From Dehalococcoidales bacterium (lineage in GTDB: Bacteria; Chloroflexota; Dehalococcoidia; Dehalococcoidales; RBG-16-60-22): DNA of 64,000 bases. The first letter of the stretch is position 1, and each line of letters starts with the position of its first letter. The position numbers and the translations under genes are program-made. The notes under the pieces were generated by a model. The model saw only the letters and a program-made list of their open reading frames with translations. It ran no database searches and was not told the DNA's origin. Shown here piece after piece: positions 1 to 28,916 of this stretch. The DNA lies in contig JBEKDL010000006.1 in the NCBI GenBank assembly GCA_050014355.1, positions 1,543 through 65,542 on the forward strand. The letters run 5' to 3'.

Positions 1-258
1 GCGATGAGGGGTGATAAATTCCTCAATCTGGCAAACGTGAAACTGAAATCATTCAGGGGGCCAAAGGCCGGAGCTGATGCTTACTTCACTTACCAGCTTT
101 AGTGCGACTCCCGGACCGGTAAAGGTCGGCATTTTGCATATTCTAGACTGCAAAGAAAGGAGCGTTCCATCTTTGAGCCTTGCGACGGTGTCATCGAAGA
201 ATGATTGGTCAGAAATGGACGTCTCAGGAGTCTTAAGCTCGAAATGTGAGGTAAGCCG

Positions 259-1386: not shown

Positions 1387-1439
1387 GAATATAATAAAGA
1401 AGATTTAATGAATCTCAAAGTGCTGAGGGAGAGGCTGCT

Positions 1440-2339
1440 ATGAGTATTTGTGACGGTATTAAAAAAATACCACTCCCTCGTTATCTTAAAGAGTACAGCG
1501 AGGAAATATTGCACATAAAATTCGATAAAGATGACTCACTTGGACAGGATTACAATCCAAAAAAATGGCAACGTGAGTTTACAGGCGATCCTTCTGTTAC
1601 CGATGACCTAAAGCGCATAAGACAAAAATGTCCTGTTAAAATAAGCCGTAGTGACGTTGCCCATTTTGCCCAAGAGACACAATCTGGAGGTTATCCCGAG
1701 CTTAAAAGGCTATTTCTAGCCTGTATGATATGGGGATATGGCCAGCATGACACTGGACTAACGAACACTAGCAAAACTCTGTCTGACCCTAGACTCAGAG
1801 CAGTTCTGGAGAAATCACTGGAAAGAATTAAAAAAACGCAAATTAGGGAGGCTTACCAAGCTTTCAACCTGAAGGGGTGCGGACCTGCTTTTTTCACCAA
1901 GTTCTTCTACTTTGTCGGGAAGGAGTATAACGTAAAACCGTTGCCTCTAATTCTCGATAGTCATGTAGCGAACTTCTTAGAGTTCCTGAGTAAACAAACG
2001 ACGTGGGAACTATCGCTTTTTGCTAAACGGAGTCAAAAAGGATTCGTAAAACGCCATACCGAGGGGTATATTCAGTACATATGTTCAATGGATAACTGGT
2101 CCATGAAACTGGGGTGTGCTGCGGATACGATAGAATACTTTATGTATAAGAGAGACCAAGCCCTTGTACAGGAGGAGAAAGAGGAGGGTATTCCTGAGGA
2201 TAGTATTTTATGGTGTCACGATGGGTTACGCTGCTCTTATTGCGAAGAACTTCTGTCCTCACCACCCTTTGATAAAAAAAATATTAAGGCCCTGATTACG
2301 GCACATGTGTGTAAAATAAATAATAGACAAATCGATTGA
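1440..2339 (+). CDS. hypothetical protein, possibly OGG-fold/HhH glycosylase-like with C-terminal Cys/His cluster
   Basis: 299-aa ORF. MIWGYG...LKGCGPAFFTKFFYF...PLILDSHV resembles OGG-fold proteins; this is a weak assignment from memory. C-terminal CHDGLRCSYC...HVC. Its stop overlaps the next ORF. Confidence 0.45.
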   Translation: MSICDGIKKIPLPRYLKEYSEEILHIKFDKDDSLGQDYNPKKWQREFTGDPSVTDDLKRIRQKCPVKISRSDVAHFAQETQSGGYPELKRLFLACMIWGYGQHDTGLTNTSKTLSDPRLRAVLEKSLERIKKTQIREAYQAFNLKGCGPAFFTKFFYFVGKEYNVKPLPLILDSHVANFLEFLSKQTTWELSLFAKRSQKGFVKRHTEGYIQYICSMDNWSMKLGCAADTIEYFMYKRDQALVQEEKEEGIPEDSILWCHDGLRCSYCEELLSSPPFDKKNIKALITAHVCKINNRQID

Positions 2340-2347
2340 GGGGAACA

Positions 2348-3814: not shown

Positions 3815-3962
3815 TCTCAATTATAAACGTGCTGAACATCTTAGTAATATACAAATAAATTGTGACTGTCACTATAAGTTCCCTTGTGTCAGGTAAACAG
3901 TAAACAGATATACGCAGACTTCGGTGTCCTCTTTACTGAACGGGACAAAACCTAGTTCAGTT

Positions 3963-4400
3963 TCACTTTACTTTGCGCAATATCCGTCTAAACAGATCGA
4001 CAGCCTTGGAACGATCGCCTTGTTCCATCCCATGCTGCACAAGTGCTATTAGAGCTCGCCGGACCAAATTCAGGTCATTGTATTTCAATAGCGGACGGAC
4101 TGCGGCATCGTTAGGTACCTGCTGGAAATCATCTTCTGGGTTTCTATTCAAAAAGAGGTCGATAATGTCGCCGCGTTTTTCAACCGGAAACGACTCAATG
4201 AACCTTATACGCTCATAAGGGATGAATCGACTAATCGGCGGCTTTTCCGGTTCGGTTTGAACTCTAACTACTATGACATCACGAAGTGGCATTAATTCCT
4301 GAGCATTGAAAGACGAACCGTCATCCAAAGTGAACTTAAGCAAGGAGTTCCCTTTTACATGCTCGCGCAAACCACTATCAAAAAACTCTTTGGTGAACAA
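3963..4400 (-). CDS. hypothetical protein
   Basis: 145-aa ORF with TTG start preceded by GGGAG. No recognisable motifs. Confidence 0.4.
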   Translation of the reverse strand: MFTKEFFDSGLREHVKGNSLLKFTLDDGSSFNAQELMPLRDVIVVRVQTEPEKPPISRFIPYERIRFIESFPVEKRGDIIDLFLNRNPEDDFQQVPNDAAVRPLLKYNDLNLVRRALIALVQHGMEQGDRSKAVDLFRRILRKVK

Positions 4401-4717
4401 TCTCCGCTCCCTTAATATTGTACCGATGCCTATAAATCCAGCTTCTCTGTTTCTTTTTCGCGCATCACTCTTGTGGTAGAAATATATGCTTGCAAATCGA
4501 TGACGTGATAAAACAAGGTCCTTTTGATTAGGCCTATTCTACACCCTGTCAACGGTCTATGACTAGGCCCCGGTCGTGCTCTTGGCGACAGCGGCACGTT
4601 AGGTCAGCGGGCAACAGACCAGGGAAAATGTCAGTATATGAAAGGCCTGCTTAACCCTCCCGTCCGGGAGTCTTTTTGTTTTACTCATTTCCTCTGTCCG
4701 CCCCCCCTACCGACATA

Positions 4718-4792
4718 AAAATCAAGCATGATTTTATATGGCGTTTAATGTAAATTAAACGCTTGACAGTCAACGAAATAATGTGTTATTGT
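4718..4792 (+). promoter_or_regulatory. sigma70-like promoter with two upstream palindromes
   Basis: TTGACA at 4763-4768, an 18-nt spacer, then TGtTATTGT (extended -10) at 4784-4792. IR AAAATCA-n4-TGATTTT at 4718-4735. IR GCGTTTAAT-gtaa-ATTAAACGC at 4741-4762 abuts the -35. Confidence 0.45.
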
Positions 4793-4850
4793 AATACTAG
4801 AAAAGCAAATATTACAGCTTTTCAAATTTACTCAAAAGGGGGATGGACAA

Positions 4851-5348
4851 ATGGCAGAACAAACAAGACTTGCGTCATTGCTGGAGAAGCAACAGAAGCT
4901 GGAGGCCGACATCGAGTCGGAGAAGGCCAAAGTAGAGGCGGCTAAAGTCCTGAATAAAATCGGGGCGGATGTAGCAACCGTTGTCCAGCAAGCGGCAGTC
5001 AAGGCCAAAGTGGATGTGAAAGTCCTTCACGGAAAGTTCTTTGCCCTGACTGTGGATGATGGCGGGAAGCTATCCGTCGAGGTAGTTACCAAAGCCAACG
5101 GGAAGTCCAACGGCAACGGCAAGGCCAACGGCGGGACAACCACCAACGGCGGGGAGTTTGAATACTTCCTGAAAGATGGACGGGGGCCGTTTGAGACTAT
5201 CCAGAAGGCTATGGAGGCTCTCGCAGTCCCGGAAGCAAACCGTCCGAAGCACAACCGCTATGACAGGCTATCGAAGGACTGGAAGGCCAAAATCGAGCAG
5301 AAGGCCAAAGCCACCGAACCGAAGGCCACCGAACCAGCCAAGAGCTAG
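4851..5348 (+). CDS. hypothetical coiled-coil protein (possible nucleoid-associated, H-NS/Lsr2-like architecture)
   Basis: 165-aa ORF with RBS AAAGGGGGA. N-terminal heptad-like K/E/A-rich helix, Asn/Gly linker KANGKSNGNGKANGG, and a C-terminal DGRGPFETIQKAMEAL segment. Confidence 0.6.
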   Translation: MAEQTRLASLLEKQQKLEADIESEKAKVEAAKVLNKIGADVATVVQQAAVKAKVDVKVLHGKFFALTVDDGGKLSVEVVTKANGKSNGNGKANGGTTTNGGEFEYFLKDGRGPFETIQKAMEALAVPEANRPKHNRYDRLSKDWKAKIEQKAKATEPKATEPAKS

Positions 5349-5378
5349 GCACACGGACAATTGAATATAGCAGGGTTT

Positions 5379-5419
5379 GGGGGACAGGGCGTTATGCCCT
5401 GTCCCCCATTTGCGTTTTC
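5379..5419 (+). terminator. rho-independent terminator
   Basis: GGGGGACAGGGC-gttat-GCCCTGTCCCCC perfect 12-bp stem followed by ATTTGCGTTTT. Confidence 0.6.
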
Positions 5420-5531
5420 AGACCCCTGTCCGGGGGAGGTAGCCCACGTTACCGCCCTGGGACGGAGGCCTGAGAACCTCCGAGGATAGAGGTCGAATAT
5501 CCAACAGCACTACGAAAAAGGGGGATAATCA

Positions 5532-6620
5532 ATGCCCAAGACTAAGGTGGACAAGATACCTTGCCCACATTGTCCCTACGAAGCGTGGTCTAAGGAAGAC
5601 CTGGACGGCCATCTCAAATTCTCCCACGGGGAGAAGCAGCACCACAAGGTAGCCCAGGAAGTGGCCGAGGCGGTCTCCGAGAAGCAAGAGGAAGTCCCGG
5701 CACCGGAACCCGTCCAGCTGGCGAAGCCCGAAGAGGAGTTAAACCTCCCTCCGGGCATTTTTGTGCCTAAACCCCTTCCCGACTTCTGGGTGTCCGAGAG
5801 GGTTGTCCGGGAGCTCTTTATCATCGCCAAGCTGTCCAAAAAAGGCGAGGCGGTGAACATTAAAGTCCTCGGACCCGCCGGAGTGGGAAAGACCTCCCTG
5901 GGGTGGGAGTTCGCCGCCGCCAACAAGAGGCCATGCTTCGAGGTACATTGGGGAATGTATCAGGAGCCGGGAGAAGTTTGGGGTAAGGACAGACTCTCGA
6001 TGGAGAAGGGGACGTACTACGAGCAGGCTCGCTACGTGGACGCCCTGGAAACCCCGAACTGCGTTGTCATTCTGGACGAGCCAAACCGATGCCACCCCGA
6101 AGTCCTCAATACCAATTTTGCCCTGTGGGACTGGAGGCGGGCGGCGTGGGTTCCCGACCTCCGGCGGATGGTCAGGGTAGCGCCGGGAGTCGTTTTCTTC
6201 GCCTGTATGAACGAAGGAAGCGAGTATATCGGGACTAACCCGATGGACAGAGCCATTCGGGAGAGGTTCGGGCGTACCCTGCGACTGACATGGCCTCCCA
6301 TGAAGGTCGAGTCCAAAATCCTGCGCAACAGAACGGGCGTGGACAAGGACACCGCCGACAAGCTGGCGAAGTTCGCCCGGGACGTCAGGCGCAACCCGAA
6401 GGTGGGATGCACTCCCTCCACAAGGCAACTTCTGGTGGCAGCCCAGGACGTCAAGGAGGGGCTGCCCATTCAGGAAGCGGTACTTTACTCCATCATCAAC
6501 GACCTGGATGAGGGTGCCGACCGGACGGCTCTTCTCCAACACCTGCAAGTAATCGGTACGGTGGACGAAGCTTTCGTCAACGGTACACAGGAGGAAGACG
6601 ACGATGACGACAATAAATAA
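5532..6620 (+). CDS. MoxR/CobS-like AAA+ ATPase with N-terminal C2H2 zinc finger
   Basis: CPHCPYEAWSKEDLDGHLKFSH (C-x2-C-x12-H-x4-H). Walker A GPAGVGKTS, Walker B VVILDEPNR. Acidic tail EEDDDDDNK. Confidence 0.8.
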   Translation: MPKTKVDKIPCPHCPYEAWSKEDLDGHLKFSHGEKQHHKVAQEVAEAVSEKQEEVPAPEPVQLAKPEEELNLPPGIFVPKPLPDFWVSERVVRELFIIAKLSKKGEAVNIKVLGPAGVGKTSLGWEFAAANKRPCFEVHWGMYQEPGEVWGKDRLSMEKGTYYEQARYVDALETPNCVVILDEPNRCHPEVLNTNFALWDWRRAAWVPDLRRMVRVAPGVVFFACMNEGSEYIGTNPMDRAIRERFGRTLRLTWPPMKVESKILRNRTGVDKDTADKLAKFARDVRRNPKVGCTPSTRQLLVAAQDVKEGLPIQEAVLYSIINDLDEGADRTALLQHLQVIGTVDEAFVNGTQEEDDDDDNK

Positions 6621-6975
6621 AGCGGCGGTGGAGGCGGTACTCAGGGGCGGGGCAAAGACAGACAGGCCCGCCCGGATAGCCGAGCTGGAGAAGCAACTGG
6701 AGAAGGTCCGCAAGGATATCGCCGAACAGGAGAAGGTGGAGAACTACTGGCGGACGTTCAACGGGGCTTTCGCCAAGCTGAAGGCGAAATTATTCAAGAC
6801 CCTGACCCCGGAGGAGAGAGCCTGCATGGACGGTGCGTATCTTTTCCTGCACGCTGGCTGTGTGGACTTGGTTCGCAGTCTGCCATCGGCCACCGACAAG
6901 GGAGAGGGTAACCAGTTCCTGGACAAGGTGGAGATGGGCGAGGCGCTGGCAGAACTCGGGAATTTAATCAAATAG
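6604..6975 (+). CDS. hypothetical protein
   Basis: 123-aa ORF overlapping the upstream stop by 17 nt. Coiled-coil-like N-terminus. No recognised motifs. Confidence 0.45.
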   Translation: MTTINKAAVEAVLRGGAKTDRPARIAELEKQLEKVRKDIAEQEKVENYWRTFNGAFAKLKAKLFKTLTPEERACMDGAYLFLHAGCVDLVRSLPSATDKGEGNQFLDKVEMGEALAELGNLIK

Positions 6976-7063
6976 TCGAAACGGCGGGAGGCCCGGCTCC
7001 CTCCGCCGTGGGGATATGGCCTACCCCACCTGATGATGACAGGCCAGAAAGGAGGGATAAAAG

Positions 7064-9160
7064 ATGCAGAGAGAGAGAAGTCTGTCGGACTTCTGGCGGG
7101 AAGACAAGTCGGATGACAGGGTGATGGAACTCACCTCCGTCCTGCGTGGGGCTGACAGCCTCATCGGGGTCATGGGGTCTGGCGTCCGTACCGTGTGGTC
7201 AACCGATGGCTCTTCGTCAACCGTGTGGCTGAGGATGATACAGAGTAAGGCCACGGAAACCCGGGTTTTCCTGGACTACTCGCCGCTGGCCGACCTGAGG
7301 CCTCCCTTCGGTGGGCAGGCCGTCGATGAGGTCATAGGATACGCCGCCCATGAGGGCGGACATTGCCTGTGGAGCGCCGAGGACACCAAGACCTATGTGG
7401 ACAATGCCCTGAAAGGGCGCATCATGCCCACGACCAGAGCGACCCGTCCCCACGATGACAAGAACCGCTATTGCCCGTGTCCCGTGTGCGAGATTCTCAG
7501 GATAGACAATATTCTGGAAGATGCCTTCATCGACTACCACGTAGCGGAAAAGTGGCCGGTCCTGGGAGAGTACATCCGCTGGGCCAGATACAAGATAGCG
7601 GATAGACGCCCCATCGACTACGACCAGATAGCCCGGGAAGCGCGTCCGGGGAGGAACTGTATTGTGAACCTCTGGATAGCTTGTTCGCTGTATGACAAGC
7701 CTCTCCCGGACAAGATGAGTGCTAGGGTCAAGCGGGCGATGACTTTCCTGATGAGCAAATCGGTTCAGGCCGTCCAGACGCCGGTAAGCCAACAGCGGGC
7801 TAAATTCGCCGTGGAGTGCTGGGAATACCTGAATAAGGAGTTTACGGCCAACGAAGAGCCGCTTCCCAGACAGCCACCGCCTGCTTTGCCACAGACCGGT
7901 ATCCCTGGCGTCGGCCAGGCGGGAGGTCAGGGCGAAGGGGAAGGCAAAGGTGGCGGCGGAGGATCATCCACCGGCCAAGACAATGTCCCGAAAGAGACCA
8001 AGCCTGAGGGAAGCTCCGAAGAAACGGACACCGGCAAGGACAATGTCCCAGAAAAGGGCAAGGCCGAGGGTGAGGGTGAAGAAGCCGAGGCTGGCGAGCC
8101 TGAAGGCGACGAGGGTGAAGGCGATGGAGAGGGGGACGTAGGGGGTGAGGGTTCATCTGATAAAGATGACGAGGCCGAGCCGGAGGCAGAGGCCGAAGCT
8201 GGCGAGCCGAAGGCCGAGGGGCAGAAGCAGGCAGGCGGACAGCAGGGCGGCGATGAGCAGGGAGCTCCCGGGAACCTGGATGATTTCGACATTCGGGAAC
8301 TCGGAGAAGTACCTGAAAAGGTTATCAAGGAAGTGCTGGACGCCATCGCCCACGAACTGGAAGACCTCTCCCAGTCGGTAGCCGAGGTTATCAACCAGCC
8401 GGTCGGGAGGGTTAACGCCCAGACCAAGATTGCGGATTACGATGGCCCCGCAGCGGACAGAGTCCATGCTCAAGTAGAGCCACAAATACAGGAGATGCGG
8501 AGGGTGTTCGACAGGCAGGCGCAGGTCAAGTCCCGCCAAATCAAGGGGCTGACCACCGGGAAACTCGACAGCCGTTCCCTTGCCAGAGTAGGCACGGGAA
8601 GCCTGAGGGTTTACAAGAGGCGGGAGGTGCTGGACACTCCCGATATCGCCGTAGGTTTCCTGGGCGATGCGTCGGGGTCGATGGCACGCAACATGGATAT
8701 CCTCTACGCTTCGGCCTGTGTCTTTGCGGAGGCGCTGATACGGAAGAAGGGCGTGAATTTCCTGGGACTCGTCTACACAGGCGGTAGCTTCGATGTCCAG
8801 ACGACACGAATATGCGACCGTGCGATGGGTCGGCTCTGTATCGGGAATGTGGACCAGGGCGGAGGCACTCCGTCCGGGCCGGCGATAGCTTCTATCAAGG
8901 TGCTGATGGACAGAAAGCCGGAGAGACAAAAGGTCATTATCCACTTCACCGATGGCTACCCCGATGACCAGTACAGCGTGATTTCCGCGGTCAAGGCGGC
9001 CCGGAAAGCGGGCTACGCTGTGTGGGCGATAGGTTTGGGGGGGATGGACAAAGCCCTCGAAGCGCAGTACGGCACTGGCAACTGGGAAACCATCGGCAAT
9101 ATCCGGGAGCTGCCGGCGAAGGTTGGCGAGCTGGTGAAGAAGCTGGTGATTGCGAGATAG
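7064..9160 (+). CDS. CobT-like VWA-domain protein with HExxH motif and acidic low-complexity linker
   Basis: RBS AAAGGAGGG. HEGGH at 7349-7363. Roughly 130-aa G/E/D-rich linker. C-terminal VWA with MIDAS-like DASGSM and ...FTDGYPDD. Confidence 0.8.
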   Translation: MQRERSLSDFWREDKSDDRVMELTSVLRGADSLIGVMGSGVRTVWSTDGSSSTVWLRMIQSKATETRVFLDYSPLADLRPPFGGQAVDEVIGYAAHEGGHCLWSAEDTKTYVDNALKGRIMPTTRATRPHDDKNRYCPCPVCEILRIDNILEDAFIDYHVAEKWPVLGEYIRWARYKIADRRPIDYDQIAREARPGRNCIVNLWIACSLYDKPLPDKMSARVKRAMTFLMSKSVQAVQTPVSQQRAKFAVECWEYLNKEFTANEEPLPRQPPPALPQTGIPGVGQAGGQGEGEGKGGGGGSSTGQDNVPKETKPEGSSEETDTGKDNVPEKGKAEGEGEEAEAGEPEGDEGEGDGEGDVGGEGSSDKDDEAEPEAEAEAGEPKAEGQKQAGGQQGGDEQGAPGNLDDFDIRELGEVPEKVIKEVLDAIAHELEDLSQSVAEVINQPVGRVNAQTKIADYDGPAADRVHAQVEPQIQEMRRVFDRQAQVKSRQIKGLTTGKLDSRSLARVGTGSLRVYKRREVLDTPDIAVGFLGDASGSMARNMDILYASACVFAEALIRKKGVNFLGLVYTGGSFDVQTTRICDRAMGRLCIGNVDQGGGTPSGPAIASIKVLMDRKPERQKVIIHFTDGYPDDQYSVISAVKAARKAGYAVWAIGLGGMDKALEAQYGTGNWETIGNIRELPAKVGELVKKLVIAR

Positions 9161-9283
9161 CTTGCACCTCCCGCAAGGGAGGGTTCGTAGTGTTGGTCAT
9201 TTGACCCTCGGGAGGGGAGACAAAACCTCCCCTCTCGCAGTCGAGTGACGAACACTCGGAATATTTCTGAAAGGGGGATAACT

Positions 9284-9478
9284 ATGGCGCAGTACACGAA
9301 ACAGGAGGCGGTCGAGGTCTTGAAGGTCGGCAAGGCTTCGATGGAGGTCGCCAAGACCAAGGATGAGGCTATCGCCATCCTGACAGAAGTGGGCAAAGAG
9401 GTCGGATATAAGCCCACTTTCCGCTGTCTGGTCTTGGGCCAGAATCCCGAACAGGCAATTACGTGGGGAGGTAATTAA
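9284..9478 (+). CDS. hypothetical small protein
   Basis: 64 aa from the ATG at 9284, directly after CTGAAAGGGGGATAAC. The track start at 9245 is GTG and lacks an RBS. Confidence 0.45.
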   Translation: MAQYTKQEAVEVLKVGKASMEVAKTKDEAIAILTEVGKEVGYKPTFRCLVLGQNPEQAITWGGN

Positions 9479-9479
9479 C

Positions 9480-9725
9480 ATGGGCGCAAATAAGCGAGAT
9501 TGGGAAGACAGGGTTATCGAGAAGTCCGAGGAACTGGCACAGGAACGCTACAACACGGATTTCAGCCAGCTTTCGCCACCGTTACAGATGAAAACCTGGC
9601 TGGATGCCGAGCATGAGGTCAACGACCAGATAGCCAGCGAAATGGATGCGCTCCGGGACAGAATACGTGAGCAGGGCATCGACCACTGGGCTGAGTTGGA
9701 GCTGGGCAGGAGACTCGGAAAATAA
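9480..9725 (+). CDS. hypothetical small acidic protein
   Basis: 81-aa ORF starting 1 nt after the upstream stop. Confidence 0.45.
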   Translation: MGANKRDWEDRVIEKSEELAQERYNTDFSQLSPPLQMKTWLDAEHEVNDQIASEMDALRDRIREQGIDHWAELELGRRLGK

Positions 9726-9917
9726 GTGCTCATCTCTCCACTCATGGGGCGTCAGGATAAGTTTTTTGTTAAAAAATCGCAAAAAACACGCTTGACGCCT
9801 CCCAGTGGGGCGATGAACCCCAAATAATCTGAAAGGGGGATAACCGACAGCAAGAGAGGTGGCAAAAGGTATCACAAGGTAACCCGGGAAATATTTTATG
9901 AAAGGAGAAACCAAACT

Positions 9918-10712
9918 ATGGCTCCAAGACCTACATGGAAAGGCGGGATGGGCTTCGGTATGGTCAACGTACCCGTGAAGCTCTTCACCGCCACGGACGA
10001 GAAAACTATCCACTTCAACAACATACACCGGGAGTGCAAGACGAAGCTGAACCAGCCGAAGGTCTGCCCTACCTGTAAGAAGGAAGTCGAGACCAAGGAC
10101 ATGGTGAAGGGCTACGAGGTCGGCGACAACCAGTGGGTGTTCCTGGAAGATTCCGATTTCGCCGCTGTCCGGCTAAAGTCGCTCAAGGCGATGGAAGTGC
10201 TGGAGTTCGTCGATGGCGCCGGGATAGATCCCCGACACTATGACCAGTCCTACTTCGTCGCCCCGGATGAGGCCGGCGCCAAAGCCTTCTCCCTCTTTCT
10301 TCAGGCTATGGCCAAGGTGAATATGGTGGGAGTCGTCAAGCTCACCTTCAAGACCAAGGAAAAGCTGGCGACCATCCGGGCTTTCGGCAAGGTCATTCTT
10401 CTCCAGACACTCTTCTACGCCGATGAACTGAAGCCGGCCCAGGATATCCAAGTCGCTCTGCCCGAGGTTTCCGAGCGAGAGTTGGAGATGGGCATGACCC
10501 TCATCAAGACACTGGCATCAGGCAAGGCGGATATGACCAAGTACCACGATAACTACCGGGAAGCCCTGATGAAGGTCATTCAGGCGAAGGTAGCGGGCGA
10601 AGTCATCACGGTGGAGGCGGTGCCCGAGGAGAAACCTATGGACCTGGTGGATGCTCTCATGGCTTCCATCAACGCCGAGCAGAAGAAGAAGGAAACGGCG
10701 GGGGTGGCCTAA
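9918..10712 (+). CDS. ku: Ku (NHEJ DNA-end-binding protein)
   Basis: N-terminus RPTWKGGMGFGMVNVPVKLFTATDEKTIHFNNIH...VCPTCKKEV...VKGYEV matches the bacterial Ku core. RBS GAAAGGAG. Confidence 0.9.
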   Translation: MAPRPTWKGGMGFGMVNVPVKLFTATDEKTIHFNNIHRECKTKLNQPKVCPTCKKEVETKDMVKGYEVGDNQWVFLEDSDFAAVRLKSLKAMEVLEFVDGAGIDPRHYDQSYFVAPDEAGAKAFSLFLQAMAKVNMVGVVKLTFKTKEKLATIRAFGKVILLQTLFYADELKPAQDIQVALPEVSERELEMGMTLIKTLASGKADMTKYHDNYREALMKVIQAKVAGEVITVEAVPEEKPMDLVDALMASINAEQKKKETAGVA

Positions 10713-11665
10713 TGGAAGCCGTGAAACCCATGCTGGCGGAAACAGCGACGGAAGCATTTGATGACCCTAACTACATTTACGAATGGAAATACAACGGAGT
10801 AAGGATTATCGGTCGCAAGCAGGGCGGGTCGGCCTCACTTCAAGGACGGAGTGGGGCCGACTTCACGTCACAGTTCCCGGAACTGGCTGACCTGGCCAAG
10901 TATATCAATGCGTCCAGCGCGGATATCGATGGGGAGGTGGTCTGTCTCGGAGAGAACGGCCTGCCCGACTTCAACCGCATCCAGAACCGCATCGGGAAGC
11001 GAGAGCCGCTGGTCATCCAGAACATGGCCAGGCAGTATCCAGCCACGTTCATGGTCTTTGACGTGACCGCGGTGGAGGACTACGACCTGACGGCCGGTGG
11101 GAAAGCTCAGGCTACCCTGATGCAGCGCAAGGAGCTCCTCCAGAAGATTCTTGTTCCGGACGGAGTGGTCAAGCTGTCTCCCTGGGTTGACGGCAAAGGC
11201 AAGGAACTGCACCAGAAGGCCGTCGACCTCAATCAGGAAGGCATCATGGCCAAGACCAAGAACGGACTCTACTATCCCGGCGGCAGGAACAAGGACTGGC
11301 TGAAGCTCAAAGTCCCGAAGTACGCCAATTTCGTCATCTGCGGCTTTACGAAGGGGACTGGCTGGCGCCAGGACATGATGGGGGCAATCGTACTCGGGAA
11401 GCCCGAAAACGGCACGCTCCGATGGGTCGGGTGCGCTGGGTCGGGTTTCCAGCTCAAGGTGCTCCAGGACTTGTTTCAGGCTCTCCAGACTATCAGGACA
11501 GAAGATAGCCCGTTCCCGCCCGGGACGAAAGTGCCTGACCTGTTGAGCTGGGTCAGGCCGATGCTCGTGGCCTCCGTGAAGTATTACGACATCACGAAGA
11601 CGGGACAGCTCATCTGGCCCATCTTCCAGAGGGTAAGAACTGAATTAACACCGGAGGAGGTGTAA
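10712..11665 (+). CDS. ATP-dependent DNA ligase (LigD ligase-domain-like, stand-alone)
   Basis: Motif I EWKYNGVR, motif III FMVFDV, motif IV EGIMAK, motif V DWLKLK. The start overlaps the ku stop (TAATG). Confidence 0.9.
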   Translation: MEAVKPMLAETATEAFDDPNYIYEWKYNGVRIIGRKQGGSASLQGRSGADFTSQFPELADLAKYINASSADIDGEVVCLGENGLPDFNRIQNRIGKREPLVIQNMARQYPATFMVFDVTAVEDYDLTAGGKAQATLMQRKELLQKILVPDGVVKLSPWVDGKGKELHQKAVDLNQEGIMAKTKNGLYYPGGRNKDWLKLKVPKYANFVICGFTKGTGWRQDMMGAIVLGKPENGTLRWVGCAGSGFQLKVLQDLFQALQTIRTEDSPFPPGTKVPDLLSWVRPMLVASVKYYDITKTGQLIWPIFQRVRTELTPEEV

Positions 11666-11666
11666 T

Positions 11667-12062
11667 ATGGCAGACCAAAATGGTCGAATCAGGAAACGTC
11701 AGAGCTACCAGATGTGGCTCGGCCTTTCCAAGTTTCTCGATGGGAAGCTGAGCAAGCAGGAGATAATGATGCGTATGCACAGTCTCCTGAACGGCGCCAG
11801 CGCCTATGGCTCCATCACCAAGGCAGAGTACAGCAGGGAAAGCCTCGAGCTGGTCATGCAGGACATGGCTACGCCGGCAGGATTAAATGTCGAGGGGGCA
11901 GACGTAAAGGTCGGAGGGAGCTATTCCGGCGATGAGCTCATGGAGGCTCTCGGGGGAGATATGCACGACGGACTGTATGCCATTGGAAATGACAAGACCA
12001 TTGTCGTTGCCGAGGATGAAGGGAACGATAACTACAAGGTACTGTCCGTGCTGGCGAGGTGA
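11667..12062 (+). CDS. hypothetical protein
   Basis: 131-aa ORF starting 1 nt after the ligase stop. Confidence 0.5.
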   Translation: MADQNGRIRKRQSYQMWLGLSKFLDGKLSKQEIMMRMHSLLNGASAYGSITKAEYSRESLELVMQDMATPAGLNVEGADVKVGGSYSGDELMEALGGDMHDGLYAIGNDKTIVVAEDEGNDNYKVLSVLAR

Positions 12063-12089
12063 AGCTATGGCGATGAATAAGAGCTCCTG

Positions 12090-12866
12090 GTGACCGGCGG
12101 GCCAAGAGGGACTTATCGCAGTCGGACGACATCTACCTACAAGCTGAAGGACCCCGAGTTGGTGAGGGAGTGCTTGGAGAAGTTGTCTGTGATTAAGGAA
12201 GGCCAAGAAGAGGGAGAAATCCCGACTGACCTGTTTGACTTCATCCTCGGCCACGACCAGGTGAAAGACCTGCTCTGGAAGTCTATCAATGCAGAGAGAC
12301 CGGTGCATATCCTCTTGGTGGGTCCCCCAGCAACAGCAAAGAGTATGTTCCTTGGAGAGTTGGGCCGGCTGCCGTTTTCACGATTTGCCTTGGGAGGCAG
12401 CACAAGAAAGGGCGGATTGGAAGACTACCTGCTTGAGTTTCGCCCACGATATCTCATCATAGATGAAATTGACAAGATGGATATGCGGGACATGAGCGTG
12501 CTGCTGTCGCTGATGGAGAGCGGGGTCGTGGCCAGGTTGAAGAAGCGTATGAGGGAGACGGAGATAATGACGACATGGGTATTGGGAGGTGCGAATAGGG
12601 ATGAGCATATCTGGCCCGAGCTGAAGAGTCGATTCTTCACCGTTCACCTGAAGGAGTACTCCGAGGCCGACTTCTTGCAGATATCCGAGACAGTACTCAT
12701 CACTCGTGAGAAGGTTGACCCGGGACTCGCCACTTTTATAGCCGCGAACCTGGCTCGACATACTCGAGACGTGCGTGAGGCTATCCATTTTGGGAGACTA
12801 TGTAAGACTGAGGAAGATGTGAAAGGCCTTCTTCAACTGAAGTTCCCTGGCAGGGGACTTTTCTAA
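12090..12866 (+). CDS. AAA+ ATPase (MCM/Mg-chelatase-like flavour)
   Basis: Walker A LLVGPPATAKS, Walker B YLIIDEIDKM, LLSLMESG segment. GTG start without a clear RBS, so the start is uncertain. Confidence 0.7.
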   Translation: MTGGPRGTYRSRTTSTYKLKDPELVRECLEKLSVIKEGQEEGEIPTDLFDFILGHDQVKDLLWKSINAERPVHILLVGPPATAKSMFLGELGRLPFSRFALGGSTRKGGLEDYLLEFRPRYLIIDEIDKMDMRDMSVLLSLMESGVVARLKKRMRETEIMTTWVLGGANRDEHIWPELKSRFFTVHLKEYSEADFLQISETVLITREKVDPGLATFIAANLARHTRDVREAIHFGRLCKTEEDVKGLLQLKFPGRGLF

Positions 12867-12894
12867 TTTCCCTATCGTTTATCATAGATGAAAA

Positions 12895-12929
12895 GGAGCC
12901 AGGACATAGAGCCTGGCCCCTTTTCTTTT
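12895..12929 (+). terminator. rho-independent terminator
   Basis: GCCAGG-acatagag-CCTGGC stem extended by GG/CC, followed by TTTTCTTTT. Confidence 0.55.
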
Positions 12930-13405
12930 GAATGGCTGTCTTTAGTGGAAGCCAACTTAGCTCCGACCTAAATGCAGCAGCAAAGAGGGTTGCAGTCTCT
13001 CCACGGACCATCTCCATATAACCTTCCGCGGCCACACTCACACTATCCACAAAGGAGATGTCCATGGACTGCCCATTGCCCAATTCTCTAATCTCATTTT
13101 CCAATACACTTTGTATCCCTGGTATAGTTCCATTGTGGACATCGTTTAGTGTTAGTCTGTGGATAGCCAGCCCGAGCATTGAATGATAAAGCTAGGCCAG
13201 CACACATGGCGATGCGGGAAAGGAGACGAAGATACTTTCCTTTAGCGTTATCCACGAGCTTTCCTCTACTTTTATAAAATCCCAGGTGGTAAGAGTTCAT
13301 CGTATCCAGCCACAAGAGGGGGGACCCCCTTATTCCCTTTACTATTAGATGACAATTGAGCCTCCATGTCCTTCTATGTCCTTTGATTTTCATCCTCGTT
13401 AACAC
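12930..13405 (-). pseudogene. possible decayed tyrosine-recombinase fragment (two overlapping frames)
   Basis: Strong RBS GGGAGGTG before MKIKGH... The two frames join to read ...KYLRLLSRIAMCAGLA / GLAIHRLTLNDVHNGTI, resembling the xxTGLRxSELxxLxxxDV box. No HxxR or Tyr region follows. Confidence 0.25.
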
Positions 13406-13625
13406 CTCCCTTTTCCCTATTGGGATGCGTATAACGCCAATTAAACGCTTAGTATTTCAGCCTGATTTCCTCCCCTAACTTCTCCTCTGAAACATCGCCC
13501 TGGGTCATCAGCAACCAGAGCCTCTTCAGCGATTCTTGGTCGATTATCACACTAGTGCTGGTGAAAGTGGTGCCGCAACTTCCTCAAGGAGGTGTCCGAT
13601 GCTTCCCCAGGAATCTAATTTACGT

Positions 13626-13800
13626 CCTCGGGATACTTCCGGGGATTATTCCCCGAGGAAACGTTGAAGCTGAGGTCGGGGACACTTCGGGGAAATCGTT
13701 GAAGCTAAAGCGGGGAACAGTCGGGGAAAGCCAGGGATGCTTCGGGGAAACTGTTGAAGCTAAAGCGGGTAGTTTTCGAGGAAAGCCTATAGATGTCGTC
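13626..13800. repeat. iteron-like repeat field
   Basis: About 10 copies of a CGGGGAA-like core. Three 24-26-nt units GGAAAnnGTTGAAGCTrArGyGGG at about 13657, 13691 and 13746. Palindrome CGGGGA-ttat-TCCCCG at 13640-13655. Confidence 0.6.
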
Positions 13801-13926
13801 GTATTTATTTGGGGAATCATGGTTGACAGTTATGGAAACATTGTTGTGTAGAACAGCGTGCAATTCCCAAAACACTTATGAAAATATAGGAAATATACTA
13901 AACTTCGCTTAAAGATATATTGCACC

Positions 13927-14121
13927 TCAAACCGTGAGGTTGGTATCTGCCCTCTTTTGCTCCCTCTGAATCTTCTCCAGTATGGCCTCTTCCAGCCACT
14001 TTCCCATTGTCATCCTCTTAATAACGGCAGCTACCCGGGCTTGGTGGAGAATATCAGGATCAACCCTAACACTGGTGTTCGGTTTCATTCCAGTCCTAGG
14101 TCTACCTGTACGCTTTTTCAT
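13927..14121 (-). CDS. ribbon-helix-helix (CopG/Arc-type) DNA-binding protein
   Basis: 64 aa. Basic N-terminus KKRTGRPR, then TSVRVDPDILHQARVAAVIKRMTMGKWLEEAILEKI (beta-strand plus two helices). Confidence 0.65.
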   Translation of the reverse strand: MKKRTGRPRTGMKPNTSVRVDPDILHQARVAAVIKRMTMGKWLEEAILEKIQREQKRADTNLTV

Positions 14122-14227
14122 GAGTTTATTGTAATGTCTGTAATACTAAATGTCAAATTAGGGCTATCCTGGCTGAAATATCTGATGTGGCCTCAGACGT
14201 CTTCGGTGACTGCCCATAGCTGCAAAT

Positions 14228-14260
14228 CGGCCACCCTTATGGAGCAAACCGGCCACCCTT
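14228..14260. promoter_or_regulatory. tandem direct repeat upstream of the RHH gene (candidate operator)
   Basis: CGGCCACCCTT at 14228-14238 and 14250-14260. The 22-nt period is about two helical turns. Confidence 0.3.
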
Positions 14261-14436
14261 GGAGAGGTTACCCATACGCAAGACAAAAGAGGTCCCGCGC
14301 TTAAAGAATGGTATCTTGCCAGCTTTGTTTATAACAGACTGTTCCGAGAAGAAGGTAAGATGTGTTTGGTACGGGAAGTAGCTACCGAGTAAAAGCCAAC
14401 CTGGATTATAAACAGCCTACGGCGCGTCCATGATTG

Positions 14437-17400
14437 TTATTTTATATCCATCGTCAAACGCACAACAGCCGAACGCATGTTGATTTTACGCTGGTCTACC
14501 AACTCGGCAAGGCTGTGGAATCGGCGTTCAATATAGGATTCTCCTGAGGGTTCAAGAAAGATGGCATTTACTTGCTTCCCTAATTCCCATGCTTCCGCCA
14601 GCATCTCAACCCCATTTTCTCTCTCTAATGATGAACTAGCAAGGAACAGGGGAATTTCGTCCCCATCACTCACTAACTTCCACCGGAAAATGCCTTGTGT
14701 TCGTATAACTTGAGATCCGTTTGGATGTAAGAACGCTCCATGTATGTCATCCCATTGGTATTCAAGTCCCCTGAGATAATGACTTAATCGTTCAAACTGT
14801 TTAGCCTGCCTCTTCTTATGCAATAGAATATCATCCGCATCTTCACCTTCATCGTGTTTTTCATTGATATCCTTATCGGTCGAATCCGTGGATGTTACAT
14901 CTTCACCGTGAGGTGAGATGGTCTTCCCATTCGAACCTTGACCTGGAGGTTCATTTGCACTAGCGTCCTCAATGCTAGATGTCAAATCGTCCAAATCGAG
15001 GTGCTGGCGCCCGTATGCTAGGATCCATACGTCACTCCGAGCTACACAGTCTCTTATGGCTCGCTTCGACTCTTCGGTTCTAAATGATCGAGCAAGTTCT
15101 CTGACCAGTTTGTCAAATACCCCAGCAATATCGCCTGCAACATATAGAATATGATCGTACCAGGCCACAACCTCCTCTCTTTCGAGGCTAACCGGACTAT
15201 TATTCAGATACTTCTGAACGCGCAAGGAAGAAGCTGGATGCAGTTTCGTCGCTGCAAGCTTTTGCCCTGTCTTGCGATCGGCCACGTAGTCATCCGCCTT
15301 ATCGTTATCAGGAATACGAAGACCTGCAAGCAGTGTTCCAAGTGCTTTAAGCCACAATTGGTCAGATGACACAGCCTCTCCATCCAATTCAACTTTCGAA
15401 ATTCTAAGTTGCAGATGATTCTCCAGCATTAAGGGTACTTTCTCACCAAGTGAAGTCAATAAATTAGCTTCCACCATTGAAAAATCGCAAACTGTGCCCC
15501 TGATTCCCGAGAAAAGACCTTCGCCGATGGCACGGTCGCGGCACCCCCAAAGAACCTCGTTTTTGTTGATGATGCGGTTATCAAGATTGAGCCATCGACT
15601 TGACTTATTCCATACTTCGCTTGGGTACCTCGCCAGTAAATCACGTAAAGCTCGTCGATCACGTTCCGAGAGGTCGGAATTTGACGGTAAAACTTCTACC
15701 CAGTTCAAGACATCGTTTAAACCAGGCTCAACACCAACTTCCAGTCGTTCCCATAAGGCTATATCGGCTATGTCGTGGTGCAGAACGGCAACACCCGGTA
15801 GGCTTCCAGGATTGTTGCGGAAAATGGCATCAATATGCTCCCAGGTATCTTCCGCTCTCGCTAATTTCTTTGAACTGAAGGCGTCCTTAATATTACCGAT
15901 CTGTTCAATCGGCAATCGGGCCACTACCCGGTCAATCGCTTGATATAGATCACGGAGTGGTCCAATAGGTGGGTTCATAGCCTGCGAAAGATCCTCTAAT
16001 CTTTTTAGAAGTGGTTGGATGTCTGCTGGGTCAGAGCGGACACCGAAGGCGTCTAGACCTACTCGACACCACTCCTGATCCCACGATGCTTTTACGAACG
16101 GCTCAATACCTTCCAATGCACTAGTCTCAGTTGTCCGGCGGTAAAGTTCCGTTGGAAGTTGCGGATGATTAAAGTCATCGGGAATACACTCAACGGTGCG
16201 GAGCCGATGAAGCCAAGATGCCCTTGCTCCACCGGTGGTCACTTCTCGTTCGTGGTCACCCCATGTCTCAAATATGCATATCTTTGTTCGCAAATCCCAA
16301 GTTTTTGCCCATGACTGCAAAATAGCCCTAGAAAGACGCACCCAGATATCTTTATCCGTTGAGCCCTTTTCGGTCCAATAGAGCCAGAATTCCTTAGCGA
16401 AATCCCAATCGAAGATAGCATAATGTCTTGGATTATTATAATAGAAAGATGGCTGCTCACCTCCTCTAGCGCTACAGAGTTCTGTGACATTGTATCGAGA
16501 ATAAAGAAAATGCTCTGATTTTTCAGGAACTGGAAAGGCTAGGATGCCGCCGCGGTTATAAGACCTCGCCCACTTTCGCCAAACATCTTTTTCCTTTGGT
16601 TCCAAACCAGCTTCGTATTCTTCGGTAAGAACATGTGTCTTAATCCATTCCGGTGGTAACAATGATTCGATGTCGATGTCCCCCGGTACTAGACACTTAT
16701 CGTTTGTCCGCCAGGACCCATCTTGGCATAAGAATTTTATTTCTCCACCAGCGATTATTACTGGTAAATCTAATTCGGCCGCGACATGAAGAATCCGAAT
16801 CGCTTTATCCTTGTTAGAATCAACATCATTAAATATGGTTGACGCCGCAAGATTCAGGATATCTCCTATTTCTTTGGGCTGGTTCAATCCAGTTTTATCG
16901 TAACCATTTTTGACGCGAGTTAAGTCTGACTTCTCAATTCGCATCCCTGCAGCCTCGGTTAAGTGGTCCAGGTCAAGTTCAGTACTCTCAACAATTTGGC
17001 TTATGATTCGCGACCAGTTTGAGTCTAACACTTTAACCATGCTGCAAAGAAACTGCCATTGGCTATCCAGGCATCTTTCAGGAACTGACGGCAATGTAAC
17101 TATATCTTTAGCCCTGCCGAGGATGTTGCTGCCTTCCACAGGTATCAAAGCGGCTCGACGCCAGAACTGCCATATTCCTGTCATTGTTTCAACAGTTCGC
17201 TCTGCTAAACTCCATAATGGCAGGAGACTTTCTATCTTGTTTGGTCGAGGGGGCGGTTCGCATCTTTCATCCTGAAGCTTAGTAAATGCATCTTCCGCTT
17301 TGAAGATTTCGACCAATCCCCACTTTGAAAGATTCTCAATATGTTGTTGACGAACATGAGGTGCCAAAGCATTCGTCCAATCGGGAGTGAAATAGTCACA

Positions 17401-18609
17401 AGCGGTTTCCCACCCCCACACATTAATCACTTGGCGAGGTAGGGCAATCGTGCCATCCTTGCAGCCAAGCTCACTATTCGCATTCAATAGAATATCTTTT
17501 TCTTTTATGACAGTCGCAAAAGCTTGAGAAACCTGATTGCATGCTGATTGTTCTATATTAAAAGAGTAATCAGTACCTTTTGGTGGCATGAGGCTGTAGG
17601 CCTCTGCTCTGTCCGTCAAATTGAGATCTGTTCTACCTAACCAGTCCAGTAGACTTGATCCGAGTAGACGTCCAATTCTTCCCAGAAGCCAACGGTTTAC
17701 AGGTGAACTGGCCAACTCCTTTATACCACGTCGAGCAGGATCTTGAATGAACGGAGCTTGAACGCACACTGGAAGGTCGAGTTTGACGCCAGTTGGAAGT
17801 ACCACATGTAGTCGTCCTCTATCTCCTTCGGGCACATGAGCTACTACGATAACACGGCACGGAGGAAAATCTACATCACTCTCGCCACGCTCTTCCTGTA
17901 TTTCTTCGATGCAATCAGGAGGGAAATCCTCATCTTTAGAATCAATGACAAGAACTTTATCTGCAAGCCCCGTGAGCCTCACAAATTTGGAGGCAGTGCA
18001 AGGGCCAGGTTCCTCCGCTGTCATAGCAAATTTTTTATTCTCCAGATTGAAGCCCTTGATATTGTCAAAGAAAAGAAGTGGCAGGGGAGATTTCCGCCAC
18101 CGTTCAAACTCATCTTTTAAAAGTTGTTCTTTTTGCTGAGCATCCAGTCTCACTTTGATTATCGTATGTTCGGATGGTTCAGTTCCTGAAATCCATTCCG
18201 GTTCAGTAAAACGGCTCTTATTAAAGCGACAAGTAATTGTCGGCGTCGTAAGTTCAGCAATTGGTCCAAGCGAAAAAACTGATTTGAAACCAATTCCTCT
18301 AAAACCGATTGTTAATAGCCGTCTCTTGTTTGATCGGCCAAATGAACAAAGGGACTCGAACTCTTCACATGTGAAATCATGACCATTGTGCTCAAACACA
18401 AAGAAACCATCTTTAAGAAAGCCGGATGCCCATGTCGCACCAGCATCATCCGCGTTCTGAATAAGCTCTGAAAGTACATGCCGCGGGCTTTGCACTTGGC
18501 GAAACAGTTGGTACCAAGGGCCAGCTAAATCAGGATCGCCTTCAAGTTGATCCCAACGGCTTTTTGCCTTAGAGCGTATAGCTTCAAAAAAGTCTGGTTC
18601 GCGGAGCAT
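14437..18609 (-). CDS. giant sacsin/NO VEIN-like GHKL ATPase
   Basis: 1390 aa. N box SELIQNADDAGA, G box GFRGIGFKSVF, and PFIQDPARRGI...NRWLL downstream as in sacsin-type modules. Starts 6 nt after the upstream gene. Confidence 0.8.
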   Translation of the reverse strand: MLREPDFFEAIRSKAKSRWDQLEGDPDLAGPWYQLFRQVQSPRHVLSELIQNADDAGATWASGFLKDGFFVFEHNGHDFTCEEFESLCSFGRSNKRRLLTIGFRGIGFKSVFSLGPIAELTTPTITCRFNKSRFTEPEWISGTEPSEHTIIKVRLDAQQKEQLLKDEFERWRKSPLPLLFFDNIKGFNLENKKFAMTAEEPGPCTASKFVRLTGLADKVLVIDSKDEDFPPDCIEEIQEERGESDVDFPPCRVIVVAHVPEGDRGRLHVVLPTGVKLDLPVCVQAPFIQDPARRGIKELASSPVNRWLLGRIGRLLGSSLLDWLGRTDLNLTDRAEAYSLMPPKGTDYSFNIEQSACNQVSQAFATVIKEKDILLNANSELGCKDGTIALPRQVINVWGWETACDYFTPDWTNALAPHVRQQHIENLSKWGLVEIFKAEDAFTKLQDERCEPPPRPNKIESLLPLWSLAERTVETMTGIWQFWRRAALIPVEGSNILGRAKDIVTLPSVPERCLDSQWQFLCSMVKVLDSNWSRIISQIVESTELDLDHLTEAAGMRIEKSDLTRVKNGYDKTGLNQPKEIGDILNLAASTIFNDVDSNKDKAIRILHVAAELDLPVIIAGGEIKFLCQDGSWRTNDKCLVPGDIDIESLLPPEWIKTHVLTEEYEAGLEPKEKDVWRKWARSYNRGGILAFPVPEKSEHFLYSRYNVTELCSARGGEQPSFYYNNPRHYAIFDWDFAKEFWLYWTEKGSTDKDIWVRLSRAILQSWAKTWDLRTKICIFETWGDHEREVTTGGARASWLHRLRTVECIPDDFNHPQLPTELYRRTTETSALEGIEPFVKASWDQEWCRVGLDAFGVRSDPADIQPLLKRLEDLSQAMNPPIGPLRDLYQAIDRVVARLPIEQIGNIKDAFSSKKLARAEDTWEHIDAIFRNNPGSLPGVAVLHHDIADIALWERLEVGVEPGLNDVLNWVEVLPSNSDLSERDRRALRDLLARYPSEVWNKSSRWLNLDNRIINKNEVLWGCRDRAIGEGLFSGIRGTVCDFSMVEANLLTSLGEKVPLMLENHLQLRISKVELDGEAVSSDQLWLKALGTLLAGLRIPDNDKADDYVADRKTGQKLAATKLHPASSLRVQKYLNNSPVSLEREEVVAWYDHILYVAGDIAGVFDKLVRELARSFRTEESKRAIRDCVARSDVWILAYGRQHLDLDDLTSSIEDASANEPPGQGSNGKTISPHGEDVTSTDSTDKDINEKHDEGEDADDILLHKKRQAKQFERLSHYLRGLEYQWDDIHGAFLHPNGSQVIRTQGIFRWKLVSDGDEIPLFLASSSLERENGVEMLAEAWELGKQVNAIFLEPSGESYIERRFHSLAELVDQRKINMRSAVVRLTMDIK

Positions 18610-18615
18610 TAATCT

Positions 18616-28866: not shown

Positions 28867-28916
28867 ACAGTTTCGTAAACCGCTTGTCGTAGGTTCGATT
28901 CCTATCGCTGGCTCCA
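28867..28916 (+). repeat. att-like direct repeat copy 1: tRNA 3' segment (positions 27-76, anticodon CGU)
   Basis: ACAGT-TTCGTAA-ACCGC-TTGTC-GTAGG-TTCGATT-CCTAT-CGCTGGC-T-CCA. Identical to 36695-36744. Weaker similarity extends back to about 28848. Confidence 0.7.

Follow-up and report, generated by a model that had tools for sequence, protein, structure and literature searches.

A coupled Ku and ligase-only gene pair on a decayed mobile-element remnant in a Dehalococcoidales bacterium

Among phages, genes for the end-joining protein Ku are known in mycobacteriophages and in one Streptomyces phage (PMC11936186). In this work, we describe a gene pair encoding Ku and a ligase-only ATP-dependent DNA ligase, found in a stretch of 64,000 nucleotides (nt) from a Dehalococcoidales bacterium, which is referred to below as the window. 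It corresponds to positions 1543-65542 of contig C6 (JBEKDL010000006.1) in a 94.8% complete metagenome-assembled genome (MAG; GCA_050014355.1) of 2.13 Mb in 112 contigs. The same genome carries a separate, canonical set of genes for non-homologous end joining (NHEJ), and the pair in the window sits in what is left of a larger mobile element.

The mycobacteriophage proteins (Omega/cluster J, Corndog) are the closest described counterparts. They are likewise bacterial-type Ku proteins of a mobile genetic element, whose large genome (about 110 kb in their case) carries the gene among non-structural ones, and they are presumed to join the ends of the element's own DNA. However, they share about 34% identity with the window Ku and fall in a different clade of the Ku tree. 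No ligase gene adjoins Ku in the mycobacteriophages, whose Ku reportedly relies on the LigD of the host to circularise the phage genome, as Pitcher and colleagues are said to have described in 2006. In the family to which the window pair belongs, by contrast, the ligase is co-inherited with Ku and coupled to it in 7 of 10 loci; the parent element is only putatively viral. Apart from a single unannotated faecal contig, a search among GenBank phages returned nothing but the mycobacteriophage Ku, at about 34%.

Departures from the usual bacterial arrangement were surveyed by Sharda et al. 2020, who described ‘non-conventional’ Ku and LigD systems without the polymerase (POL) and/or phosphoesterase (PE) domain, as well as NHEJ genes on rhizobial and Streptomyces plasmids (PMC7719229). 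In that survey, no NHEJ was reported from horizontally acquired parts of chromosomes (PMC7719229). The window pair, in contrast, lies in horizontally acquired chromosome DNA and belongs to an uncultivated family that also carries cobS- and cobT-like genes (cobST), a clamp and a clamp loader. We also noted a Sporosarcina plasmid on which Ku is followed by a short ligase-like gene. With canonical NHEJ, as in Mycobacterium tuberculosis, Pseudomonas aeruginosa and the host's own set on contig C7, the window pair shares the Ku core, the C-terminal helix of Ku and the LigD ligase-domain lineage. It differs from canonical NHEJ in the absence of POL and PE domains, in a KxNG version of ligase motif I, in a degenerate motif VI and in its mobile-element rather than housekeeping context.

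A further point of comparison is the viral cobS/cobT pair, which has been described as widespread in, and a hallmark of, tailed viruses (PMC8651126). The AAA+/VWA gene pair located upstream of ku in the window matches the phage CobS and CobT families of the PHROG database. No published report linking viral cobS/cobT to Ku and a ligase was found, and the function of cobST in viruses is itself inferred. What is new here is a large uncultivated family of elements in which cobST, Ku, ligase and clamp form a strictly linked module, together with a KxNG ligase subfamily that lacks a conserved motif VI, a covarying leader RNA and a chromosomal remnant.

The gene pair and its foreign origin

The window pair consists of genuine genes for Ku and a ligase-only protein, whose activity is predicted to be end joining. 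The Ku protein has a single domain and 264 amino acids (aa), which fits the range of about 260-300 aa of bacterial Ku proteins with a minimal LigD-binding C-terminal region. It matches Pfam PF02735 (E 7.5e-45, 153.6 bits against a cut-off of 25) and, over residues 4-251, NCBIfam TIGR02772 Ku_bact (254.5 bits, cut-off 150). The 317-aa ligase matches PF01068 and PF04679 and no other domain. Its best NCBIfam model is TIGR02779 NHEJ_ligase_lig, with 220.2 bits, slightly below the cut-off of 227.75, and its best match among solved structures is the ligase domain of M. tuberculosis LigD (1VS0). An AAGGAG ribosome-binding site lies 5' of ku, and the stop codon of ku overlaps the start of the ligase gene in TAATG at 10710-10714. 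A coupled pair of this kind had been proposed in an earlier reading of the sequence (hereafter, the original prediction), and the coordinates of the open reading frames (ORFs), the profile matches and the overlap all agree with it. The absence of LigD polymerase and phosphoesterase domains (PF21686, PF13298) near the pair was likewise confirmed: neither is present in the ORFs of 4.8-13.9 kb, neither is listed across about 60 kb of related contigs, and in the whole genome these domains occur in the LigD of contig C7 only. Relative to L007, an apparently intact related element, the ratio of non-synonymous to synonymous substitution rates (dN/dS) is 0.16 for ku and 0.14 for the ligase gene.

The pair derives from a mobile element; it is foreign, accessory DNA and does not represent the core NHEJ of the lineage. 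The search for a second chromosomal ku/ligD, suggested in the original prediction, led to contig C7, where an 890-aa LigD of PE-Lig-Pol architecture and a 259-aa Ku are encoded in a housekeeping context, with metK- and ahcY-like neighbours. Compared with this canonical set, the window Ku reaches only 36% identity and the window ligase, against the LigD ligase domain, only 34%. In a maximum-likelihood tree, the C7 Ku groups with the chromosomal Ku of relatives (support 100/100), while the window Ku falls in a separate clade (99/96) composed solely of proteins from metagenome contigs, apart from the Ku of mycobacteriophages, IMG/VR and plasmids. Thus, the comparison with chromosomal and phage homologues puts the window Ku in an element-borne clade and not on a line of vertical descent. 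No close relative of it was found among 60 genomes of the same genus, family and order (best 39%), among 400 genomes of the class (best 45%) or among 185,579 species genomes (best 40%), and Ku as such occurs sporadically within the class. Positions 1-20000 of the window are missing from 12 relatives, bar one gene; synteny with the genus starts only at about 38.6 kb, and everything to the left of that point is absent from relatives. The guanine-plus-cytosine (GC) content of the block is 58%; the genome averages 53.5%, and the flanks lie near 46%. The placement of the pair outside the core genome, as originally proposed, is thus upheld by the missing region in relatives, by the canonical set on C7 and by the Ku tree.

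The H-x2-C...C-x2-C cluster pointed out in the original prediction is present in the window Ku as HRECK (H37, C40) and CPTCK (C50, C53), and all four residues are invariant in 24 members of the clade. Cryo-electron microscopy of M. tuberculosis Ku has revealed a possible metal site at the bridge, to which one protomer contributes His35 and the other contributes Cys48 as well as Cys51 (PMC12658125). Because of this site, the cluster is read from the sequences as a general bacterial Ku feature, to which the window clade adds a putative fourth ligand, C40. The minimal C-terminal helix of the window Ku (DLVDALMAS) is also conserved, with D242, L247, A249 and S250 invariant within the clade, and it aligns with the C-terminal helix of the M. 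tuberculosis and Bacillus subtilis proteins. In M. tuberculosis, the C-terminus of Ku touches not only POL but also the ligase domain (PMC13717202), which makes the recruitment of a ligase-only partner mechanistically plausible.

The ligase retains the lysine of motif I, but this motif reads KYNGVR in place of KxDGxR. The form K-[YWF]-N-G-x-R is found in essentially all ligase homologues of at least 52% identity and in a few at 45-46% (P0195, P0198), whereas KxDGxR occurs in most homologues at 40-48% identity, which form the sister group, and in all below 40%, host LigD included. An active fungal tRNA ligase has KxNG as its motif I, and the asparagine reaches the catalytic metal through a water molecule (PMC6379707). 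By analogy with this active enzyme, the change would be compatible with catalysis, yet it marks a distinct ligase subfamily. Motifs III, IIIa, IV and V are kept (D73-G-E75, F116-D117, E176-G...K181, K198 and K200). Motif VI of the OB domain (LRxP...RxDK) is degenerate, with LIWPIFQRVRTEL in the window ligase as compared to LRIPVFLRLREDK in the host LigD; in the ligase clade it is replaced by LIWP..., and the tail varies among members.

The remnant and its parent element family

The segment 4718-13450 (about 8.7 kb) is the deletion-collapsed remnant of a much larger element, as indicated by a truncated clamp-loader gene, a pseudogene and the absence of an integrase. Its features are listed in Table 1. 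DNA and protein homology to the parent elements extends from 4718 to about 12060, with 80-83% DNA identity to the nearest relative. The first deletion junction lies at the 3' end of the 131-aa ORF; in an intact relative, the full clamp-loader-like gene is located about 16 kb downstream of the ligase gene. The polyprenyl-synthase pseudogene is 41-43% identical to the polyprenyl synthase of the element, and its orientation relative to ku is as in the parent. The integrase, the clamp and the ubiquitin (Ub) system have been lost from the window copy. No other pieces of the parent element were found in the assembly, where the searches returned only matches of 25-49% to host IspG, IspH, a kinase and integrases.

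Table 1. Features of the remnant, in the order of their positions in the window
Feature	Position	Strand	Evidence or remark
Left edge of remnant, conserved 51-nt non-coding block with palindrome and promoter	4718-4792	+	alignment to parents
165-aa conserved protein, first cassette gene	4851-5348	+	N-terminal coiled coil, low-complexity linker, conserved C-terminal domain
cobS-like MoxR-type AAA+ ATPase	5532-6620	+	AAA_5 and CbbQ_C; phrog_249, E 5e-25
123-aa conserved helical protein between cobS-like and cobT-like genes	6604-6975	+	no family match
cobT-like protein with C-terminal VWA domain	7064-9160	+	VWA, VWA_2; phrog_5298, phrog_17276 (cobalamin biosynthesis protein, CobT subunit)
Small conserved ORF, 77 aa	9245-9478	+	tblastn 59-70% in L007, L009, L011, L015
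Small conserved ORF, 81 aa	9480-9725	+	tblastn 31-53% in five loci
Structured leader hairpin	9730-9816	+	covariation, folding energy
ku	9918-10712	+	264 aa, element-type clade; without long basic tail
Ligase-only ATP-dependent DNA ligase, LigD-ligase lineage	10712-11665	+	317 aa, adenylation and OB domains alone
131-aa ORF, probably chimeric	11667-12062	+	residues 80-130 alone match an element ORF (tblastn); blastn 11905-12057 vs L011
5'-truncated clamp-loader-like AAA+ gene	12084-12866	+	71% identity to residues 77-335 of a 336-aa element protein; phrog_168
Fragmented polyprenyl-synthase pseudogene	12973-13405	-	PF00348 partial; two pieces in different frames, C-terminal 40% gone
Second operator-like palindrome copy, right end of remnant	13427-13448	.	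GCGTATAACgccaATTAAACGC; right-hand ‘repeat’ of the original prediction

Six cassette genes are under purifying selection: those tested are intact, and their dN/dS values against the nearest relative are 0.06-0.20. The window lineage and the L007 lineage have equal counts of non-synonymous and synonymous changes (N:S), which indicates no extra relaxation in the former. The cobS-like gene has orthologues of 66-93% identity (dN/dS 0.06 against L007), and cobT-like orthologues are present in all related loci. For the 123-aa protein, orthologues were found in the 8 loci compared by sequence, and a small ORF occupies the equivalent position in the other two. The 165-aa protein has orthologues of 46-70% identity at the same position in 8 loci and matches nothing in Pfam, PHROG or PADLOC. 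An H-NS-like reading of this protein was considered but is not supported (AlphaFold2 (AF2) predicted local distance difference test score, pLDDT, 62.5; no Foldseek match below E 1.7). A very strong terminator-like hairpin (5378-5408, + strand) with a 14-bp stem, 10 G-C pairs and a T-run separates its gene from the cobS-like gene, which suggests attenuation or separate transcription of the 165-aa gene. As a separate observation, the intact cobS-like/cobT-like pair (5532-9160) occurs in an order known for corrinoid dependence; its role may concern cobalamin or something else, for example DNA ends.

To the left of the remnant edge lies a sequence of 46-50 nt (4600-4649), followed by a terminator-like hairpin at 4657-4670. 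Copies with 88-91% identity are found in this genome at G000:C44:23046-23095, close to where another contig ends, and in a genome of the same genus at G001:C87:872-921. The sequence may represent either a small repeat element or a target for integration.

A large protein database yielded 290 Ku homologues, those listed being 48-89% identical to the window Ku, and a parallel ligase set exists. A source is named for only a few of the Ku homologues, and these stem from metagenomes of the subsurface and of marine sediment. Ten related loci were examined, all on metagenome contigs of 11-103 kb and with Ku identities of 51-89%. All ten share one gene order: a protein of about 170 aa, the cobS-like AAA+ protein, a protein of about 123 aa, the cobT-like VWA protein, small ORFs, Ku, the ligase, further small ORFs and, last, a protein of about 325 aa. 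The last of these is a clamp-sized ORF of 305-349 aa after the ligase in every locus; the 330-aa ORF of L040, the one such ORF tested, matches a DNA-polymerase processivity factor in PHROG. Further downstream, a 336-aa AAA+ protein of a related element matches clamp-loader PHROGs. Ku and the ligase are co-inherited in 10/10 elements, and their reading frames overlap in the seven coupled cases. At L016:10795-11265 and L054:6686-7937, ku is separated from the ligase gene by between one and four additional small ORFs, of which one contains DUF1281_C, and translational coupling is broken in these two branches.

The related contigs are nearly all co-directional, and the longer ones carry genes for a tyrosine integrase, ParA, a clamp loader and Prok_Ub/E2/E1/JAB proteins. 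A PHROG scan of 10 and then 56 parent-element proteins returned radical SAM, HNH, clamp and clamp-loader matches and one ‘virion structural protein’. From this content, the parent would be a large integrative element, virus-like or phage-plasmid-like in nature. Three of the loci (L040, L053, L057) also contain isoprenoid genes, namely DXS, IspH/LytB, an IspG C-terminal domain, an MVD-like GHMP kinase and a polyprenyl synthase. Parent elements additionally encode DnaJ and a radical-SAM protein; this auxiliary gene set is unusual for a mobile element.

Two non-coding features of the remnant are shared with the parent elements. At 4741-4762, a palindrome, GCGTTTAAT-gtaa-ATTAAACGC, with the consensus GCGT(A/T)TAAT-N4-ATTA(A/T)ACGC, abuts a sigma-70-like promoter with a strong -35 box, TTGACA-18-TATTGT (4763-4792). 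The block 4718-4768 is 90-92% identical in L009, L011 and L015 and lies inside a longer alignment in L018, the surrounding DNA being about 70% identical. The palindrome recurs 1-4 times in most related loci (L039, L053, L011, L040 and others), in intergenic positions, as compared to 0.22 times per shuffled 64 kb. Because it is dispersed within the parent elements in this way, it is probably an operator of an element-encoded regulator and not an attachment (att) site. The 24-nt imperfect repeat at 4741 and 13427, taken in the original prediction as the boundary of a mobile element, was rejected as att, since its length and identity are at chance level in 64 kb and many similar repeat families are present. 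Hence, one part of that prediction holds and another does not. The mobile-element origin of the pair is supported by the Ku tree, by synteny and by the absence of the region from relatives, whereas a self-contained, att-repeat-bounded unit is contradicted by the missing integrase, the truncated gene, the pseudogene and the dispersed palindrome.

The second feature is a hairpin of 87 nt directly upstream of ku, composed of two helices with an apical loop of variable length. Its minimum free energy is -43.7 kcal/mol (z -7.3). Across seven elements, 97.4% of cells are paired, with compensatory changes in 10/22 pairs; none of 500 shuffles equalled this pairing, and slid registers pair at most 53% of cells. 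Since G-U pairs form on the + strand, the hairpin is probably transcribed as RNA together with ku. Rfam contains no family that matches it, and the leader and promoter block come nowhere near any gathering score. The hairpin is a candidate new cis-regulatory RNA.

Possible role of the pair and competing explanations

We consider it likely, with a probability of about 0.7, that the Ku and ligase genes belong to the DNA-metabolism operon of a large uncultivated integrative element, of which the host retains a decayed remnant. The element would have entered a tRNA-linked genomic-island region of a Dehalococcoidales-type host, and later deletions would have left the present segment of about 8.7 kb. 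In the parent element, Ku rings would thread onto linear ends of element DNA, arising on entry or after nuclease cuts, and would protect and align these ends. The C-terminal helix of Ku would then recruit the co-translated ligase, and the ends would be sealed, resulting in circularisation or repair. The element would supply its own ligase, as most hosts of the order were found without Ku or an ATP-dependent ligase. Specifically, Ku was found in 9/60 and ATP-dependent ligase in 8/60 genomes of the host order, and about 85% of those searched showed neither, figures to which MAG incompleteness applies. Such hosts offer a simple reason to carry both genes, and the pair is probably maintained by elements because most hosts cannot join DNA ends. 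From their gene content, the parent elements may plausibly be self-sufficient for end joining. In the present host, the remnant would be at most an accessory NHEJ set beside the chromosomal Ku and LigD.

Several observations weigh against this reading. The ligase deviates from the LigD consensus at two catalytic motifs, the KxNG motif I and the degenerate motif VI, and scores under the TIGR02779 cut-off, so that it cannot be taken for granted that the enzyme seals nicks with ATP in the ordinary way. PHROG revealed no gene for a capsid, portal or terminase in about 60 kb of related contigs. The family is also absent from IMG/VR at useful identity: a search with a single Ku sequence returned nothing, and one with a Ku alignment returned two distant relatives of 32-36% with no ligase nearby. 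Together, the lack of virion genes and the absence from IMG/VR imply that the parent may be plasmid-like rather than viral. The termini of the element are not among the DNA seen, and a linear parent genome is hypothetical. Finally, the copy in the window is a remnant, and its present-day role may be nil.

An alternative that we regard as unlikely is domestication. Once the element had decayed, the host would have held on to cobST, Ku and ligase to serve as a second set for NHEJ, and the POL and PE domains of its chromosomal LigD would act in trans. Such a set may suit a slow grower with perhaps a single genome copy. The flanking element genes are truncated or deleted, yet all six tested cassette ORFs have stayed intact, the N:S counts match those of the intact-element lineage, and the promoter, ribosome-binding site and leader hairpin are all preserved. 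However, recent decay explains this pattern equally well, the host already possesses a complete canonical NHEJ, and the same retained block occurs in no relative.

We give a similarly low standing to a counter-defence function in the parent element. Ku would cap the ends of injected or replicating DNA against exonucleases and the ligase would reseal restriction or CRISPR cuts, circularisation not being the purpose. The position of the pair in an early DNA-metabolism operon fits this proposal. Moreover, Gam of phage Mu, a Ku homologue, protects DNA ends in phages and illustrates that such a role exists. Against it, no defence or anti-defence family matches the cassette proteins, the adjacency to the Hma defence operon of the window is not conserved, and end capping alone does not need a strictly co-inherited ligase.

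A more far-reaching idea, which we put forward as speculative and judge improbable, is that the invariant block (cobS-like AAA+ protein, small protein, cobT-like VWA protein, leader RNA, Ku and KxNG ligase) forms one end-joining or circularisation machine. Eukaryotic Ku70/80 carries a vWA module in cis, and p97 extracts Ku in eukaryotes. By analogy, the VWA protein might act in trans as the cis vWA does, the AAA+ protein might load or extract Ku rings as p97 does, and the KxNG ligase without motif VI might represent a distinct subfamily with altered adenylylation. The ten related loci form one family and hold no independent evidence for a functional cobST-Ku link. If true, the ‘viral cobST’ genes would act on DNA ends rather than in cobalamin metabolism.

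It is very unlikely that the segment forms an autonomous mobile element of 8.7 kb with direct repeats at its borders, using Ku and the ligase for its own circularisation or repair. The imperfect repeat at 4741 and 13427, the co-directional genes and the distinct GC content could be read in this way. However, no recombinase is encoded between 4718 and 13450, and the segment is a collapsed subset of 48-103 kb elements that contains a truncated clamp loader and a pseudogene. Furthermore, the repeat is palindromic and has further copies within the parent elements, and its length and identity do not exceed chance.

Just as little credence can be given to an assembly artefact, in which a piece of a co-occurring element was wrongly joined into a chromosomal contig. 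A MAG of 112 contigs and the compositionally mosaic nature of this contig would allow such an error. Yet the piece is no continuous segment of an intact element but a deletion-collapsed and pseudogene-bearing version, its DNA is only 80-83% identical to the nearest relative, and no other part of the element is found elsewhere in the assembly. That the pair represents vertically inherited core NHEJ genes of the lineage is practically untenable: apart from the sporadic occurrence of Ku in the class, no support for it was found, and the host Ku and LigD sit elsewhere and cluster with those of relatives, while the window pair clusters with element-borne genes.

Surroundings and significance

The Hma defence operon adjoins the remnant. 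In the original prediction, the pair was placed less than 2 kb from this operon, which was not borne out. The distance from the ligase stop codon to the nearest defence gene (14437) is 2.8 kb, the end of the remnant at 13450 being about 1 kb away. The same adjacency occurs in 0/10 related loci, and PADLOC, applied to all ten cassette proteins, returned no match. For both reasons, the adjacency is accidental; a defence-system reading of the cassette itself was rejected on the PADLOC result.

Elsewhere in the window, a 50-mer resembling a tRNA 3' end is present in three copies (28867-28916, 36695-36744 and 38568-38617), and two tyrosine integrases are encoded at 36871-38082 (-) and 38621-39895 (-). 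These integrases belong to other units, beside the tRNA-fragment repeats, and not to the ku block. In a genome of the same genus, a site next to the syntenic region matches the 50-mer at 100% identity, and neither ARAGORN nor Rfam detected a complete tRNA or tmRNA gene in the window. The 50-mer looks like an att remnant of the island, without relation to the ku block, and the repeats and integrases together look like tandem island accretion.

The window pair is a counter-example to the survey of Sharda et al. (PMC7719229), as it represents NHEJ genes in horizontally acquired chromosome DNA. The strict linkage to the viral cobS/cobT pair is unexplained, and the ligase motifs and the leader hairpin provide testable hooks. 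Compact pairs of Ku and a 317-aa ligase are candidate portable end-joining tools for bacteria without NHEJ. More broadly, a widespread uncultivated family from sediments and the subsurface extends the known cases of phage Ku and plasmid NHEJ, since it carries both partners as a coupled pair, and the remnant gives this otherwise unbinned family a direct host link to a Dehalococcoidales-type bacterium.

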